Source: a bacterium (GTDB lineage: Bacteria > Hydrothermota > Tepidihabitantia > Tepidihabitantales > Tepidihabitantaceae). From it: a stretch of 40,468 nt of DNA. The stretch spans positions 1-40,468 of the forward strand of contig JAWOHE010000064.1 in assembly GCA_046485285.1 (NCBI GenBank). Direction: 5' to 3'. Below the pieces are notes generated by a model. The model was given only the letters and a program-made list of their open reading frames with translations. It did no database searches and was not told the DNA's origin. The position numbers and the translations under genes were made by a program. This document shows, piece by piece, positions 1-40,468 of this stretch; position 1 is the stretch's first letter, and every line of letters starts with the position of its first letter.

Positions 1-146
1 GCAATCAGGGCCGGCTCTTTGATCAGCTTGGCCATCGTTTCGGAACTGCCGTCCGGCAACCTGCCGCCGGCTTCGCGCTCGAAGCGCAGTCTGTACTTCG
101 CCCAGCGGGCCGCGCCGTCGGGCGGTGGGACCCGATATGTCGACAT
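1..146 (-). CDS. Hypothetical protein, N-terminal part only (runs off window): MSTYRVPPPDGAARWAKYRLRFEREAGG...
   Basis: ATG at 146 with GGAG Shine-Dalgarno 5 nt upstream; open frame to the window edge; not in the ORF track. Confidence 0.55.
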   Translation of the reverse strand, partial: MSTYRVPPPDGAARWAKYRLRFEREAGGRLPDGSSETMAKLIKEPALI

Positions 147-420
147 CGTAGCTCCTTTGCGGGATTCCCGCAGTCTGCGAACATCACTGACCTCCGGGTT
201 CCGGGCTGTCCGTGCGTGTCCGCACCCGCCTGCCGGCGCCACGGCCGACCGGCCTCAGCCGGAACCCTCTATGAAGTTATGTCATCTCGGAGACCGGTTC
301 TTGCACGTGACCTGCATCGGCAGGCGGACGAGGAGGGGCAATGACCGGCCAAGCGGATTCTTTGCGGAGAGTTACGCGGCTCGTCGGACCATCAGCCTGC
401 CGTGCCCGAGATGCACTCCC

Positions 421-624
421 CGGCTGAGCCGGCCGATTGCCCGGGCAGTCACCGGGCCGGTGACATGGTCAGTGACCGGGCGGATCACCACCCGGACGAC
501 CCGGAAAATGACGGGCCGGATTGCCTCCCGAATCACCGGCCGGGTCGACAGGCGGATGACCCGGATGATGATTGGCCGGGTGACTCACCGAGTCACCTCC
601 CGGGTGACCGGGTGGGTGACCCGG
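421..624 (+). repeat. Degenerate 12-bp tandem array A (~17 units, consensus CGGRTSACCSGG)
   Basis: Units such as cggatgacccgg, cgggtgaccggg, tgggtgacccgg in 12-nt register; followed by GGGGAGGGGGGAAATTCG. Confidence 0.85.
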
Positions 625-788
625 GGGATAGGGGAGGGGGGAAATTCGGGCAGGGGATAAATGCCGAGCTGACAAGAGATTACGGCGATTTGGCTCGGAA
701 ACGAAAATTGAGTTATCACGCAATATGCCCGCTGGAAATTCGAGGACGGACAGGGACAGGTTAAGGTTGAGGCTGAGGCGAAGGGAGC

Positions 789-1056
789 GGGTTTGACACA
801 AAGCCACGAAGAGAGGCGAGGTGTGTCAGGGCGAGGGCGTCGGACCGGGGGAAAGACACAAAGGACGAGCCGGGGAGGGCCGGACTCAACACAACGGCAC
901 GAACAGGTGCTGTGTGACAGGGCCAGGGCGCGGACGGGAGGCAAAGACACAAAGGGCGGGACGGGGCGGACCGGACTCAACACAAGGGCACGAAGAGAAG
1001 TGATGTGTGTCAGGGCATGGGCGTCGGACCGGGGGGAAAGACACAAAGGACGAGGC
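789..1056 (+). repeat. ~92-bp tandem repeat (3 copies) with ACACAA(A/G)G..ACGAA core and GACACA/TGTGTC inverted repeats (REP-like)
   Basis: gtgtgtcagggc...cggaccggggg(g)aaagacacaaaggacgag at 821 and 1005, variant at ~911; ccggactcaacacaa.ggcacgaa at 880 and 971. Confidence 0.85.
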
Positions 1057-1091
1057 GGGCGTCATCCCCGGTCGTTCCGCCGGAGCCCGAA

Positions 1092-1178
1092 GGTCGTCGA
1101 GTTGCGGTGACGCGGGCGGGTCCTGCCCCGCGCGGAGAGACGATTCCGCGTTGGATTCCCGGCCCGGCGGCATCTAAC
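1092..1178 (+). repeat. Dispersed ~100-bp conserved motif, copy A (most diverged)
   Basis: GAGTTGCGGTGACGCGGG...CGGAGAGACGATTCCGCGTTGGATTCCCGGCCCGGCGGCATCTAAC aligns with 26701-26801 and the reverse complement of 38753-38852. Confidence 0.75.
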
Positions 1179-1214
1179 TGGCGACAGCCGGGCGGCCGCC
1201 GGGCCGCGGCCCGG

Positions 1215-5275: not shown

Positions 5276-5320
5276 CAGGGTTGACCGCAGAGGCACCGGG
5301 AGCCCGGCGGCAGAGGATGA

Positions 5321-5544
5321 ACCACAAAGGCACGAAGAAGGGATTTCCGGGTTCGGAGTCGAAGCGGACAAACCACCAAGGCACGAAGAAGCGGCCTGCC
5401 GGCTCGGAGTCGAGGAGGATAGACCACCAGGGCACGAAGAAGGGATTTCCGGGTTCGGAGTCGAAGCGGACAAACCACCAAGGCACGAAGAAGCGGCCTG
5501 CCGGCCCGGAGTCGAAGAGGATAGACCGCCAGGGCACGAAGAAG
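5321..5544. repeat. Intergenic 51-bp tandem repeat (5 cores ACCACCAAGGCACGAAGAAG) with alternating A/B linkers (102-bp higher-order unit)
   Basis: Cores at 5321, 5372, 5423, 5474, 5525; linkers ggatttccgggttcggagtcgaagcggacaa and cggcctgccggctcggagtcgaggaggatag alternate. Confidence 0.92.
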
Positions 5545-5610
5545 GGACTTGCGGACTCGGACCCGTGAATCCTCCGGACTTGTGTCCCGGGGTGCTCCTG
5601 CTTTCATCGG

Positions 5611-25639: not shown

Positions 25640-26120
25640 CTACCGCACCAGGACCAGCCGGGCCGACACGCCCTGAAGGTACATCTCCTGTAAGGTCAGC
25701 AGAAACGCCTGCTCGCTGCGCTGGTAGCGATCGAACAGCCGGGTCCGGTAGCCGCCGCTCCGCTCGGTCGGCACCGACAGCGCCAGTTCGCCCAGCCGGG
25801 TCCGCAGCTTCCGCGGCCGGTGCCCGCTCCGGTACCCGCGCCGGCTCCCGGCCCGCTCGTAGCGTCCGGCGCCAAGGTAGTCACGCAGCTCGCTCTCCAG
25901 CAGCTCCTGCAGCCATCGCCGCACCACCTCCTTGAGCACTTCCGGGTCATCCAGTAGAAACCCTTGTCCGGGCGCCCCGGCTGTGTTACTATCGGTCATT
26001 CTTCTTGTGGCCATTCGAGCTTTTCTTTCGATCATAACTGACGCCACATTCTCATCGGAATGCGGCACGGCTCAATGGCCACTCTCTCTTTGCCAATTTG
26101 CAGACATTACGGCACGCAAC
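25640..26120 (-). mobile_element. Truncated IS256-family element: left end plus N-terminal ~120 aa of transposase (start ~26014)
   Basis: LQELLESEL..YLGA.RYER...RRGYRSG.RPR.L.TRLG.L.L.VP..RSG.Y...LF.RYQRSE.A...LQEMYLQGVS, then abrupt stop; end GTTGCGTGCCGTAATGTCTGCAAATT resembles an IS256 terminal IR; no DDE domain. Confidence 0.88.
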
Positions 26121-26160
26121 TTCGTCGCCCGGGTCTATTGCGCGTCCCACCCCCACCCGC

Positions 26161-26304
26161 ACTCCCGGAGTTACTCCCCCAGTAACTCCCGGAGTAAACC
26201 CCCCAGTAACCCCCGGAGTAACCCCCGGAGTAACACCGGGAGTAACCCCGGGAGTTACTCCCGGAGTAACCCCCGGAGTTACTGGGGGAGTAATACCGGG
26301 TATG
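26161..26304 (+). repeat. 12-bp tandem array B (12 units, consensus ACYCCCGGAGTW)
   Basis: acccccggagta/actcccggagta repeats; preceded by cccacccccacccgc, followed by GGGGAGGGGGTAAATTCG. Confidence 0.92.
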
Positions 26305-26408
26305 GGGGAGGGGGTAAATTCGAAGCCCAATGAAGTTCTGGTTTTTCAACCAATTGCGACGATTTCCCGATTGGCCGAGTCGTTAGTTTCTACTAATATA
26401 GGCCAGGA

Positions 26409-26650
26409 ATGGTGATGCGAAGGCGGTTGGCTATGGCCCGGGGGAGACGGTTGCGCTGGGCGCGGCGTTGTGCGGGTTGCGGCTTCGGGCCGGGCTGAGC
26501 CTGGTCGAGCTGGCGCACCTGATGGGACGGAGGCCGGGCCTCTACCCGCACCTCAGCCGGCTTGAGCACGGCCGGGTGGGGCGCCCGACGCTGGGGCTGA
26601 TTGCCGGGCGGCGTTCGGGAGCTGGTGCCGGTGCTGGACCGGTACGTCGC
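26409..26650 (+). pseudogene. Degenerate XRE-family HTH regulator
   Basis: LGAALCGLRLRAGLSLVELAHLMG...LSRLEHG....PTLGLIA; no in-frame start with SD; plausible continuation (ELVPVLDRYV) lies in another frame. Confidence 0.65.
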
Positions 26651-26700
26651 GGGCGGTACGGGAGGACCGAATCCTCGTGACTGCGAGAGCCGGGCGCGGC

Positions 26701-26801
26701 GAGCGCGCAATCGGTTGAGTTGGAGAGGCGCGGGCTGGTTTCGGTCGCGGCGGAGTGACGATTCGGCGCTGGCTTTCCCGGCCGGCGGCATCTGACAGGC
26801 G
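26701..26801 (+). repeat. Dispersed ~100-bp conserved motif, copy B
   Basis: GAGCGCGCAATCGGTTGAGTTG...GGCGGAGTGACGATTCGGCGCTGGCTTTCCCGGCCGGCGGCATCTGACAGGCG. Confidence 0.85.
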
Positions 26802-26970
26802 AGGGAATACGGTGGCGCGGCGAGCGAATCACGCACCAGGGCGCGAGGTCGAGGGAGGGGGCATCTCCGCTTGACGGCTGCCCGGGTGAGGTCAGGAGAT
26901 GTCCGGGAAGCGCCGGGGCAGGGCCGGGCCGGCTTGACTTGCCCCGGCGCCCTATTACACTTCCTGTCCG

Positions 26971-28140
26971 ATGTTGATGGCCGGAGTGTTGCTGTTGGCG
27001 GCATTGCCGGTGCAGGGGAGCCTCGAACTGACCCTGGACCAGGCAGTGTACGCCGCCGAGGGCGCAACCCGGCAGTTGGACGTCAGCTACGAGATTCCCC
27101 ACGCTTCGCTGGCCTTCCTCAGGGTCGATTCCGGGTTCGCGGCGCGGTTCCGGGTCGGGATCGACCTGCTCGACGGCCGGGGCAACCCGGTGGCGGGCGA
27201 TTTCGCGGACCGGCGGGTGGAGGTCGCCGACTACGACGAGACCGTGAGCCGGACCGCGAGCATCGTCGGGACCTTGTCGGTAGCGGTGCCGGCCGGGGCG
27301 GGCGAGGCGTTGGTGCAGGTCTCCGACCTCGGGAGCGAGCGGCGGGCAAGGGCCCGGTTCCGGCTCGGCGACGGCGGGAGCGGGCTCAGGCTGGTGTTCC
27401 TGAAGTCGGGCGAGCCGAACCCGGCCCGGGCGTACGCGCCCGAGGACACGCTCGAGGTGCGGGCCGAGGTGCTGGACCAGGCCCGGCCGGACAGCGTCCG
27501 GTTCGCGGTGCGCGACGGGCGGCGGCCGATACTGGGCCGGGCCGTCGCGGTCGAGGATTCGGGGGGGCGGTTCCGGGCCCGGCTGGTCGAGCCGCTGGCC
27601 GATTCGAGCGGCGCGCCGGCGTTCCCGGGCGGTGAGTACCGGCTCGAGGCGGCCGGGGTCGGCGGAACGGCCGAGCTGCGGGCGCAGGCCGGGTTCAGAT
27701 TCATGGTGCCGTTCTTCCTCGACGAGACCGCCTGGCGGAACCGGGTCGACCGGCTGGTCTGGGTCGCGACGGTCGAGCAGATGCGGGAGCTGCGCGGGCT
27801 CGCCGCGGAGGAGCGCGAGCCGGCCTGGCGCGAGTTCTGGCAGAAGCTCGACCCGAGCCCGACGACCGGGCACAACGAGCGCGAGGTGCAGTATTTCGAG
27901 CGCATCGAATACGCCGAGGAGCATTTCGGCCGGGGCGACCGCGGCTACCGGAGCGACCGGGCCCGCGTCTACGTGACGCTGGGCGCGCCGGACCAGGTTG
28001 ACGCCCGGCCGTTCGAGCTGGATTCATACGCATACGAGGTCTGGAACTACTATTCGCTGGGGCTCGAGTTCGTGTTCGCGGACCGTTACGGGTTCGGCGA
28101 GTACGTGATGGAGAGCCCGAGGAGCTGGCGTGAACGTTAG
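26971..28140 (+). CDS. GWxTD-domain protein (secreted)
   Basis: Signal peptide; FWQKLDPSPTT..NE....YFERIEYA...F...GYRSDRARVYV.LG.PD...YEVWNY; promoter TTGACT-16-TACACT 9 nt upstream. Confidence 0.88.
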   Translation: MLMAGVLLLAALPVQGSLELTLDQAVYAAEGATRQLDVSYEIPHASLAFLRVDSGFAARFRVGIDLLDGRGNPVAGDFADRRVEVADYDETVSRTASIVGTLSVAVPAGAGEALVQVSDLGSERRARARFRLGDGGSGLRLVFLKSGEPNPARAYAPEDTLEVRAEVLDQARPDSVRFAVRDGRRPILGRAVAVEDSGGRFRARLVEPLADSSGAPAFPGGEYRLEAAGVGGTAELRAQAGFRFMVPFFLDETAWRNRVDRLVWVATVEQMRELRGLAAEEREPAWREFWQKLDPSPTTGHNEREVQYFERIEYAEEHFGRGDRGYRSDRARVYVTLGAPDQVDARPFELDSYAYEVWNYYSLGLEFVFADRYGFGEYVMESPRSWRER

Positions 28141-38657: not shown

Positions 38658-38752
38658 GGTCCCCGTCCGGGTCTTAGTTCTGACTGGGGTGCCCCCCTTC
38701 TCGACCTTGCTTCCTCGCGCCCGGACGCGCACTTCCGTCCGCGCCCGGCTCA

Positions 38753-38852
38753 CGCCTGTTAGCTGCCGCTGGCCGGGAGTCTAACGCCGAATCGTAACTC
38801 CGCCGGGCGCGAAACCGCCCCGCGTCTCCGCAGCTCAACCGATTGCGCGCTC
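38753..38852 (-). repeat. Dispersed ~100-bp conserved motif, copy C
   Basis: Reverse complement GAGCGCGCAATCGGTTGAGCTG...GGCGGAGTTACGATTCGGCGTTAGACTCCCGGCCAGCGGCAGCTAACAGGCG, colinear with copy B. Confidence 0.85.
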
Positions 38853-39314
38853 TTGCACCGCCCGCGCGAGTATGGTTTTCGCGGGCCGAACCGCCGAAAG
38901 GGGCACCATCCTGGGGGCATCCGGGCAACCGCTACCGGGGTGCTTCCCCGGGTGCCTGTCCTGAGCCCCATCCGGGCGCTCGTCCGGGGCACCGCCAGTG
39001 CGCCAGCCCGGGCGCCTGCCAAGTGCCCCCTCTGAGCGCCATCTTGGTGTCTGGCTGTGGCGCTACCTGAGCGCCTGCCCGGTGGCGCCATCCGAGCGGC
39101 CTGCCGGAGCGCTCGCGGAGTGCGGCTGGGTATGCAGTTGGCGGGCGGGCAGTCACGCTGGACAACCCGGCAGGAAGTGCCATCCTGCGCGGAATCCGGA
39201 GCGCTCGCGCCCTCGGCGCAATCGTCCTCAGGGAGATGGGCCGGGACCGGCGGAGTAGGGCTCGTTGGGCTAACCTGCTGATATGGCTGCGGGTTGCGCG
39301 TGGGCAGGAGCGCT

Positions 39315-39530
39315 CCGGGGGGTATACCCGGGGATATCCCCGGGACGGTTCCCGGGGCCGCCCCGGGGACCGTCCCGGAGGCCGCTCCCGGGACCGTCCG
39401 GGGAACCGCTCCTGGGGATATCGGGGGGACGGTTCCGGGGGCCGCCCCGGGGACCGCTCCGGGAGCCGTCCCGGGGGCCGTCCCGGGGGCCGCTAGGGGA
39501 GGCGTCCCCGGGGCCGCTAGGGGAAGGCAG
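39315..39530 (-). repeat. 12-bp tandem array C (~18 units, + strand consensus CCSGGGRCCGYY)
   Basis: ccggggaccgtc/ccgggggccgtc units; on the minus strand preceded by cccccacccccacc as in array B. Confidence 0.88.
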
Positions 39531-39585
39531 GTGGGGGTGGGGGTCCGGGTGCGGCTCGACGCGCTCCGGGCCGTCCGCCGAAGCC

Positions 39586-40468
39586 TTACCTCGCCAGCAC
39601 CAGCCGGCTGGATTCGCCGCTGTCCTGCCGGCGGACGAAGTACACGCCGGGGCTGAGGTGCCGGACGTCGTTCTCACCCTTCTCAAGCCGCGCCACCGCA
39701 CGGCCGCTGACGTCGAGCAGCAGCCCGGCAGCCTCGACGCGCAGACGACCCGCGGTGACCGAGGCCCGGACGCGCGACGGCCACCCGGCCACCGGCCCCG
39801 GCTCTTCCAGCCCGGTCACCGAGTCCTTGATGACGAAGATCCAGGAGCCGCTCCAGTGGGCAACGTAGACATAGCCGTACTCAGGCGCCGCCACCATCAC
39901 CTCCGGCAGCCCGCCTACCCGCAGCTTCTTCCGCACCCCGGTCCCGTCGGCGGACAGCACCGCCACCTCGTCGAGGTAACAGGCGGCGTAGAGCAGCCCG
40001 GACGCCGCGCTGTACAACAGCGCGAACACTTCGCCCGTCCCGACCGGTACCACTGCCGAGACCGTGTCGGCCCGCGTGTCCACAAACCAGACTTCCTCAC
40101 GCCCCAAGCCGTTACCGACCGCCACCGCGATCAGCGTGTCACTCCCGAGCCCAGTGATGGCCCGCGGCCCGAGCCCTGCCGGCGGTTCGATGACCGCAAC
40201 CACGCTGTCCCCGGCCCCGCAGACCACCACCACCCGGTTGTGCGCGCCGCAGTAGTACTTGTCCACCGCCGCGCAGCAATACCCGCAGACCGGCACGTTG
40301 CCCATCGCCAGCGTCTTCACCACCCTGAGGGTCGCAATGTCGATTGTCGACACCGACTCGCTGTCCCAGTTCCGCACGTACAGCTTGCGGCGGCGCGTGT
40401 TGAGCTCCGGCCGCTCCGGGTCCCGACCCACGCGAACGTGCGCAATCACCGAGTCCGTCGCACAGTCA
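39586..40468 (-). CDS. YncE/YVTN beta-propeller protein with C-terminal T9SS-like domain (5' end outside window)
   Basis: Repeats KLYV.N..S.SVSTID, D..ADTVSAVVPVG; CTD LLDVSGRAV..L..G.NDVRHLSPGVYFVR. Confidence 0.85.
   Translation of the reverse strand, partial: DCATDSVIAHVRVGRDPERPELNTRRRKLYVRNWDSESVSTIDIATLRVVKTLAMGNVPVCGYCCAAVDKYYCGAHNRVVVVCGAGDSVVAVIEPPAGLGPRAITGLGSDTLIAVAVGNGLGREEVWFVDTRADTVSAVVPVGTGEVFALLYSAASGLLYAACYLDEVAVLSADGTGVRKKLRVGGLPEVMVAAPEYGYVYVAHWSGSWIFVIKDSVTGLEEPGPVAGWPSRVRASVTAGRLRVEAAGLLLDVSGRAVARLEKGENDVRHLSPGVYFVRRQDSGESSRLVLAR

Follow-up and report, generated by a model that had tools for sequence, protein, structure and literature searches.

Introduction

Among described systems, those closest to the elements treated here are plasmid iterons and the type II partition centromeres, such as parC of R1 with ParR. 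The 12-mers of Vibrio ori2 with RctB (PMC8565311) belong beside them. Also relevant are the operators of Cro/CI-type (XRE) repressors, and the repetitive extragenic palindromes (REP) with their mosaic elements (bacterial interspersed mosaic elements, BIME), hairpin-forming doublets (REPIN) and REP-associated tyrosine transposases (RAYT). This report concerns three intergenic loci, copies A, B and C, in one stretch of 40,468 nt from a WOR-3 bacterium (the window; GenBank contig JAWOHE010000064.1, contig C7 of genome G000). Each locus has an array with a period of 12 bp and, behind it, a copy of a 107-nt repeat, motif M. Arrays of this period also stand before genes of an XRE-type regulator, and this combination of array, promoter region and gene is termed the regulator cassette.

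G000 is a draft metagenome bin of 2.34 Mb in 102 contigs, with 69% G+C and 88% completeness. A preliminary description of the window had proposed that the three loci have one layout and form a multicopy, lineage-specific, non-autonomous mobile or regulatory element. The loci exist, the arrays are real, and copies B and C are as it described them (Tandem Repeats Finder (TRF), nhmmer, covariance model). The motif of about 100 bp is common to all three, with a mean column identity of 71% in the alignment, and the repeats are indeed multicopy, lineage-specific, non-coding and without a matching Rfam family. The common layout and the single mobile element fared less well.

Separately repeated modules

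With moderate confidence, the three loci can be explained as different assemblies of separately repeated modules around decayed copies of a WOR-3 regulator cassette. The complete cassette would begin with a non-coding, 12-bp-phased array of about 10–25 units that is followed by a G-run or GC hairpin. An AT-rich segment of about 100 nt, with a palindromic operator at its end by the promoter, would then lead to an XRE gene. The predicted regulator, of about 250–400 aa, would have its XRE/HTH_31 domain at the N-terminus and a helical part at the C-terminus, and would contain an AT-hook-like RGRPRK sequence. G000 would then hold two intact cassettes and about 30 duplicates with the gene cut off at nested points.

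Copy numbers and partners differ from module to module. Twelve bp is the commonest tandem-repeat period found by TRF in G000 (76 rows with at least four copies), followed by 7 bp (35 rows). Clean arrays, of at least 70 bp, number 58; the array of copy A failed this filter and is excluded. A profile of the post-array block with the 5' end of the XRE gene has 33 nhmmer matches, 25 of them with an array directly upstream and 8 with M downstream. M itself has 20 nhmmer copies (E ≤ 2.3e-13, on 18 contigs) and 23 by covariance model (E ≤ 7e-5), which bears out the expectation of further copies across the genome. The clean arrays adjoin the block in 24 cases, a flanking motif termed flankX in 19, the tail of a surface-protein gene in 11 and the end of an IS256-family insertion sequence (IS) in 7; M lies at most 600 bp from 9 of them, and 4 lack all of these partners. 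Along copy B the BLAST depth moves in steps, from 10 to about 250 in the array and on through 33, 21, 10, 19 (M), 11 and 7 to 1, and no common outer ends can be defined for the array-to-M composites of G000. At one site (C65:3310-3554) two units of block and XRE stump face each other head to head across a gap of about 35 bp that contains no array.

Alignment of the 20 M copies with their flanks reveals two upstream contexts, with copy A as a third case. In type I (copy B and seven others) the order is lead-in, array, the array end GGGTATGGGGGAGGGGGTAAATTC, a 107-nt AT-richer block, a short XRE-like open reading frame (ORF) and M. In type II (copy C and ten others) M is preceded by a stretch in which CCGG recurs at regular spacing and then by 45 nt of pre-M sequence, and only three complete copies, plus two cut by contig ends, reach up to a spacer and a class-2 array. 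The homology of the type I stumps to the full gene ends at ...GCCGGGC, exactly where the homology of type II M begins. This switch indicates that type I is a gene stump fused to M, and the same junction is found at 8 sites. That M might be the missing part of the XRE gene was ruled out, since the homology ends at the junction.

Copy B would thus represent a cassette stump joined to M at a short GCCGGGC microhomology, the chimera having then reached its 8 sites. Copy C would have M behind a different class of array, and copy A would be an array of the type found in the C4 cassette, its gene gone, with a REP-like cluster in the place of the gene and a minimal M behind. The duplicates probably multiplied through recombination or gene conversion that started within arrays, and not by transposition of a defined unit.

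The alternative, in which lead-in, array, variable cargo and M form one non-autonomous mobile element served by a transposase in trans, accounts for several of these observations. There are many intergenic copies, often at contig ends; the array has an imperfect inverted pair of C-run and G-run (13/17), with a fold-back in copy B; and arrays and M occur together far above chance. Of the 20 M copies, 10 have a clean array at most 600 bp upstream, where about 0.3 would be expected by simple arithmetic from 58 arrays in 2.34 Mb. The composite nevertheless lacks common outer ends, the flanks of M decay gradually, and its modules differ in copy number (58, 33 and 20–23) as in partners. No M lies within 600 bp of 49 of the 58 clean arrays, 6 short copies of M are solitary and lack any clean array upstream, and the truncation points of the XRE gene are nested. 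No autonomous relative with the same ends was found in this genome, at its 88% completeness, and the termini of the IS256 and Y1 elements differ. The module counts contradict the single-element reading, which we hold to be very unlikely, and the claim of one layout fails on the same counts of arrays and blocks accompanied by M. As for a "mobile or regulatory" nature, the first half is not supported for the composite as one unit and the second fits better, with array, G-run and block making up the conserved region upstream of the XRE gene.

Related genomes also bear on mobility. The congeners are distant, with orthologues only 53–73% identical in protein sequence. For the gene right of copy B, G002, G004 and G001 have neither an array (periodicity ≤ 0.24) nor an XRE match in the 1.5 kb before the orthologue, and in G003 only 268 nt of this region are readable. 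No arrays occur downstream of the orthologue of the GAF gene beside copy A in G002, G004 and G001, the three congeners that have it. The absence of the element at the B position in three of four congeners, those with enough readable sequence, and at the A position in the three with the neighbouring gene is what a mobile element would lead one to expect. The repeat of copy B ends by 26920, and sequence in common with a congener starts at 26921 (26921-26973, 53 nt, 92%), in the promoter of the same gene in G004; a promoter-like site lies at 26934-26961. On the left side of copy B no synteny with the congeners was found. With left-hand synteny lost, the congener loci are not clean empty sites.

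The class-2 arrays with flankX are a second array-plus-motif family, analogous to array plus M. Class-2 arrays are often paired through a conserved 78-nt linker (15 copies) and followed by flankX (23 BLAST copies, with about 130 nt more); examples are C60:27062-27640, C88:34197-34712, C89:57239-57723, C40:30674-31170 and C64:52-535. flankX has no Rfam match.

The regulator gene and its cassette

The preliminary description had suspected a link to XRE genes, and the link is real: arrays and blocks front an HTH_31 gene or its stump. The start of the gene lies behind the block, and HTH_31 scores 34.2 and 41.8 bits against a Pfam cut-off of 27. A search of G000 with the protein P0011 gave 26 matches at E ≤ 0.01, three of which (E 0.0066–0.0070) are inside long ORFs on other contigs. 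Only two genes are intact, C4:8807-9610 (268 aa, P0011 itself) and C19:17688-18518 (293 aa); the other copies end at nested points or are broken by REP-like sequence. The C4 and C19 proteins are nearly the same over a central part of about 122 residues, with 2 differences, but at the N-terminus they are about 50% alike, which suggests a gene-conversion tract.

The family is rare, with 18 matches among 5.8 billion proteins. Of 43 other genomes of the bacterial family 36 contain it, with 1–19 copies each; among 22 genomes of the same order but of other families there is one with a copy. When reference genomes were searched, a single-protein query found no loci and an alignment query found 41; of these, 39 are in metagenome-assembled genomes (MAGs) titled WOR-3, "bacterium" or "uncultured bacterium", and the other two are weak Microvirga matches. 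At title and abstract level, the literature held nothing on 12-bp arrays in WOR-3 or on this regulator family.

Many upstream regions among 29 loci in one set of relatives are phased at 12 bp. The test was repeated on WOR-3 MAG loci, 29 of which have at least 300 nt upstream: windowed autocorrelation (lags 5–30, 500 nt upstream) gave a periodicity excess of at least 0.25 in 22 of these 29, with a best lag of 12 in 12 loci and of 24 in 10. Control regions, taken from within the gene or behind it, never reached this excess (0/29). Each array is closed by a G-run or by a C6-N3-G5 hairpin. Some 100 nt containing AT-rich short repeats come next, and a palindrome at the promoter precedes the gene. 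The G-run precedes the start codon by 109–152 nt in 8 of 9 flagged loci and by 247 nt in one. The sequence GGAGGGGGGAAATTC is kept upstream of an orthologue in a different genus, and the G-run/AAATT end, with 27 occurrences in G000, is found in three of the four congeners and, outside the genus, in 1 of 39 genomes of the family. No conserved partner gene was found upstream of the cassette: among 19 neighbours (9 in plus and 10 in minus orientation) 12 have no Pfam family and the other 7 are unrelated.

The modelled protein is all-helical, with a mean pLDDT (predicted local distance difference test) of 79. Only its N-terminal XRE domain was matched by Foldseek (ClgR, C-proteins). The alignment contains a conserved RGRPRK(T/S)R motif, which we take to be AT-hook-like.

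Register and sequence of the arrays

Printed as 12-mers, the arrays of the WOR-3 MAG loci contain 9–25 units without a break in phase. The units are only 53–68% alike; a core of 6–8 positions is kept and the others vary. In G000 the units are near-palindromic (GGAGTWACTCC, GGGACSGTCCC, CCTACSGTAGG, GGTGACC) and neighbours can pair; those of the other WOR-3 MAGs are direct repeats without palindromy (cores GACAAAC, AAAGCTC, GAAGAC). The units are contiguous 12-mers without spacers, which rejects an array of clustered regularly interspaced short palindromic repeats (CRISPR).

An array lies beside the regulator gene at 22 of 29 WOR-3 loci and in 24 of the 58 cases in G000. The array is probably not the cognate operator of the adjacent regulator, since its core does not covary with the recognition helix (L116/L118, L139/L135/L141, L132/L139, L091/L092). 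L116 and L118 have the same recognition helix and promoter palindrome with the unlike cores GACAAAC and AAAGCTC; L118, L124 and L091 have one array type and different paralogues; and L139 has the array of L135 and L141 together with the gene type and palindrome of L132. The promoter palindrome tracks the paralogue type in these groups, which makes it the likelier, putative, specific operator. The regulator's own site may therefore be the palindrome at the promoter, while the arrays may serve as a phased protein-binding platform or insulator before it, in which the 12-bp register and a short core would matter and the exact sequence would not.

A period that is a multiple of three would also be explained if the arrays were coding, as tetrapeptide-repeat tails ending in ...GYGGGGKF. 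At all 34 G-run sites of G000 the GGGGKF frame has no stop in at least the last 12 codons before the G-run. At most sites it is open through the whole array (it begins inside the array at C20, C90 and C35) and stops 5 codons after KF, and in C55, C91 and C93 it shares the frame of the upstream gene, with one TAA between. The arrays of L091 and L098, however, have a stop in every frame. Elsewhere ORFs over arrays span 109–205 aa from stop to stop with no start context and no N-terminal domain, the upstream neighbours are unrelated genes in both orientations, and the units vary at first and second codon positions while the DNA palindrome is kept. A coding function is largely refuted and we give it almost no credence; the open frame in G000 is regarded as an effect of base composition.

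The arrays of the family keep their phase while the sequence drifts and is swapped among paralogues, which argues for selection on phase and not on sequence. On this evidence, we put forward tentatively that they may be an undescribed cis-element of WOR-3, a sequence-tolerant, register-dependent platform of 10–25 units with a G-run or GC-hairpin end, kept by selection and acting as a nucleoprotein scaffold or insulator and as a substrate for the recombination by which the cassettes are shuffled and multiplied. Such arrays would front the promoters of an expanded, phylum-specific XRE/AT-hook family and of small conserved non-coding units (M and flankX in G000). Independently of this proposal, the observations bring out a conserved feature, invisible to annotation, of an uncultured phylum: a phylum-specific regulator family of 1–19 paralogues per genome usually lies behind a repeat in strict 12-bp register. 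The pattern of phase without sequence offers a way to test how genes are regulated or the chromosome is organised in WOR-3.

Motif M

M could itself be the functional core, a small RNA or a cis-acting RNA or DNA signal of this species, with arrays and stumps merely its upstream context. We consider this doubtful, and the same holds for its corollary that M would be transcribed from the XRE promoter in type I and from an array-linked promoter in type II. M is the best-conserved part of type II (74%; identity drops to 25–35% farther than about 130 nt upstream and to 30% farther than about 60 nt downstream); its invariant blocks are interspersed with variable ones; in type I it lies directly behind a gene stump that retains the promoter block; and its copy number is 20–23. 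Other results speak against this reading. The consensus fold is weak (-8.3 kcal/mol in RNAalifold) and a brute-force pair scan gave noise; a two-sided change that preserves pairing is seen, in any sequence at all, for just 6 of 25 pairs. No match at the gathering score was found in Rfam for the window, and over six loci with M or flankX an Rfam search at E ≤ 0.1 returned one chance-level miRNA match only. Upstream of M, copy C has no sigma-70-like promoter; behind M in copy B, the plus strand has no terminator-like site; and the genes downstream of M point both ways. In the 43 other genomes of the family, the covariance model found nothing beyond chance-level matches (best E 7e-4 to 6e-3 per genome).

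Insertion sequences and a RAYT-like gene

The IS256-family end beside copy B also abuts arrays or G-runs on C39, C95, C96, C98 and C11. A second IS-like end, TGTCAAGACCAGGACATAG, abuts arrays at C11:~23145, C33:~22750 and C96:~47120. Judged by these positions, at least two IS families seem to insert or recombine preferentially at the arrays.

A search of G000 for PF01797 yielded a single gene (C44:28764-29700, locus L056/L062), which encodes a RAYT-like Y1 (HUH) transposase. Its inverted ends are conserved in homologues of seven other genomes of the family (L063-L069). In G000 the ends occur only at the gene, and they were rejected as a dispersed repeat.

The gene raises a further explanation, in which the arrays are REP- or BIME-like hairpin repeats made or moved by this transposase, with stumps and M dragged along. 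The units of G000 are near-palindromes and neighbours can pair; the right inverted end of the gene touches a short 12-bp array with the usual G-run end and a diverged block; and homologues in G059, G001 and G014 have 12-bp-phased stretches beside the left end. The best NCBIfam model is the REP-associated tyrosine transposase (REP_Tyr_transpos), and RAYTs are typically single-copy (PMC5581495). The model score of 58.5 bits is, however, below the curated cut-off of 80, and the gene has a frameshift and an internal duplication of 61 bp. The array abuts only one side of it, its own ends are found nowhere else in G000, and in other WOR-3 genomes the units are non-palindromic direct repeats tied to the XRE gene. 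We regard an origin of this kind as unlikely.

Anatomy of copies A, B and C

The features of the three loci and their immediate neighbours are collected in Table 1.

Table 1. Features of copies A, B and C and adjoining sequence (window coordinates)
Feature	Position	Strand	Basis and remarks
Short ORF (48 aa up to the contig end), reads away from copy A, outside the repeat family proper	3..146	-	Translation
Copy A, left flank	150..424	+	Common to 2–3 other loci with the same array type; BLAST depth 3–4; aligns with C13, C24
Copy A, array of degenerate 12-bp-phased GGTGACC-type units	~425..627	+	Unit-by-unit alignment with C4/C13/C22/C24
Copy A, array terminus: G-run and AAATTCGG	628..648	+	Sequence
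Copy A, vestige of post-array promoter/operator block, no gene behind	649..765	+	Homology to C13 block
Copy A, "cargo": 91-bp REP-like repeat, 2.8 copies	796..1059	+	TRF
Copy A, minimal motif M, without the flanks common to other copies	1064..1192	+	Covariance model 87.5 bits; depth profile
Truncated IS256-family transposase gene (25640-26068) and IS end, abuts copy B	25640..26129	-	PF00872
Copy B, C-rich lead-in, 12-bp array (GGAGTWACTCC units) and G-run end	26146..26320	+	TRF 26164-26279, 9.7 copies
Copy B, post-array AT-rich block with palindrome right before gene start	26296..26402	+	nhmmer, alignment
Copy B, frameshifted stump of XRE (HTH_31) gene	26435..26644	+	Matches P0011 residues 7-76; no intact ORF from usual start
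Copy B, motif M	26686..26810	+	nhmmer, covariance model
Copy B, post-M tail, in fewer copies	26811..26920	+	Depth 11 to 7 to 1
Copy C, 3' end of beta-propeller surface-protein gene and C-rich lead-in	39520..39700	-	Translation; NCBIfam beta-propeller repeat
Copy C, array of class-2 units (GGGACSGTCCC)	39318..39517	-	TRF (arrays 39318-39524), array termini
Copy C, spacer, then degenerate stretch with regularly spaced CCGG, then pre-M	38870..39310	-	Type II alignment
Copy C, motif M	38744..38869	-	nhmmer, covariance model

The array of copy A is degenerate. TRF gives it only as 493-624 with a period of 60, and its 12-bp register was derived from the alignment with four homologous arrays on C4, C13, C22 and C24, which have the array end GATAGGGGAGGGGGGAAATTCGG in common with it; its fold as single-stranded DNA has z = -2.9. 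Among these relatives C4 is the intact cassette, and C13 resembles copy A beyond the array, in its left flank and in having a paralogue of the short ORF. The block of copy A is a recognizable relative of that of C13 (0 of 1000 shuffles reach the alignment score). The preliminary description had found copies A and B colinear after the array; beyond the G-run/AAATTCG end this does not hold, as a crude alignment test against the copy B block gave a score that 66 of 1000 shuffles also attain and the block profile misses copy A at E ≤ 1e-3. The post-array sequence of copy C is altogether different from both.

The cargo of copy A is a REP-like repeat, as proposed, and belongs to a separate dispersed family with relatives on C72, C66, C67, C25, C74 and C101. 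By nhmmer its M extends over 1083-1186 (E 5.8e-26). The short gene said to read away from the element exists and has no Pfam match; a paralogue at C13:4535-4697, 83% identical in nucleotides, adjoins the homologous array, and the supposed link between element and gene thus stands at two loci only, A and C13. Positions 1-151 of the window are 100% identical to C82:5117-5267, a probable overlap of contig ends, and C82 may extend the window leftward.

The transposase fragment beside copy B matches PF00872 with E 1.6e-27 over profile positions 19-120 of 379 and also the NCBIfam family transpos_IS256. Lead-in, array and G-run of copy B form one long fold-back (-55.6 kcal/mol as single-stranded DNA, z = -7.65). 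The palindrome of the block reads GTTAGT-N4-ACTAAC in most copies.

The copy C array, placed at 39338-39517 when the described layout was checked, has a single-strand fold with z = -3.1. Its spacer has 10 copies in the genome. In the stretch from -130 to 0 relative to M, identity is 66–69%. The coding tail of the beta-propeller gene is repeated about 30–47 times in the genome at the nucleotide level (BLAST depth). This tail (39586-39700, minus strand) reads ...GVYFVRRQDSGESSRLVLAR, and in C55, C91 and C93 the open frame of the array continues the tail after a single TAA. A likeness of the tail to a type IX secretion system (T9SS) sorting domain was not confirmed by Pfam or NCBIfam; a Por_Secre_tail/FlgD_ig match was obtained only for the neighbour gene in L115.

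Elsewhere in the window, 5296-5561 is a purine-rich tandem repeat of 51/102 bp (2.5 copies, 91% identity); words such as GGCACGAAGAAG recur in it, in the 91-bp repeat of copy A and in post-M sequence. G000 as a whole contains the word GGCACGAA[GC]A 35 times.

Weight of the evidence

This anatomy replaces an "unknown mobile element" by located parts: gene remnants, independent repeats and an IS fragment. Several points weigh against assembly around decayed regulator cassettes and against a phased platform. About half of the arrays of G000, those of class 2 with flankX, are not beside an XRE gene, which means that arrays are not exclusive to the cassette, and 7 of the 29 XRE loci in other MAGs lack a strong array. 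The type I stumps are 88% alike and the adjoining M 75%, which simple co-duplication of a chimera does not predict. The RAYT-like gene abuts one array and leaves room for a transposase-driven origin. Units of 12 bp do not keep step with the 10.5-bp helical repeat, which is unusual for cooperative operator arrays. Finally, in a metagenome bin with 32 of 58 clean arrays less than 700 bp from a contig end, copy numbers are lower bounds and single junctions may be assembly chimeras; a junction found in several copies is safer. The same clustering at contig ends accounts for the poor assembly of such bins.

Comparison with described systems

The operators of Cro/CI-type repressors, including those of the C-proteins and ClgR, resemble the cassette in that its product belongs to HTH_31, with a model that matches ClgR and C.AhdI over about 70–76 columns, and in the paralogue-specific palindrome at the promoter, as expected for autoregulation. 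They differ in that here an array of 10–25 units with a 12-bp period, not tied to the recognition helix, lies about 110–400 nt upstream, and in that the protein has about 190 further residues without a Foldseek match at E ≤ 0.001.

Iterons, parC and ori2 have in common with the arrays head-to-tail repeats of about 11–12 bp in strict register beside the gene of a DNA-binding protein. In contrast to them, the arrays described here are chromosomal, occur at dozens of loci per genome and have a core that differs by locus within a genome; no replication or partition genes were found near them.

REP, BIME and REPIN with RAYT (PMC3116915, PMC3733652, PMC5581495) are likewise extragenic and of high copy number, form hairpins (here in G000), occur in mosaics with other motifs and are targets of IS; one RAYT-like gene even touches an array. 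Against units of 20–40 bp in those elements, the units here have 12 bp, their palindromy is not conserved across WOR-3, and they are tied to one regulator family. The tandem repeats of Borgs (PMC9879509) are near-perfect and recent, whereas the units of the WOR-3 arrays have drifted far apart within an unbroken register.

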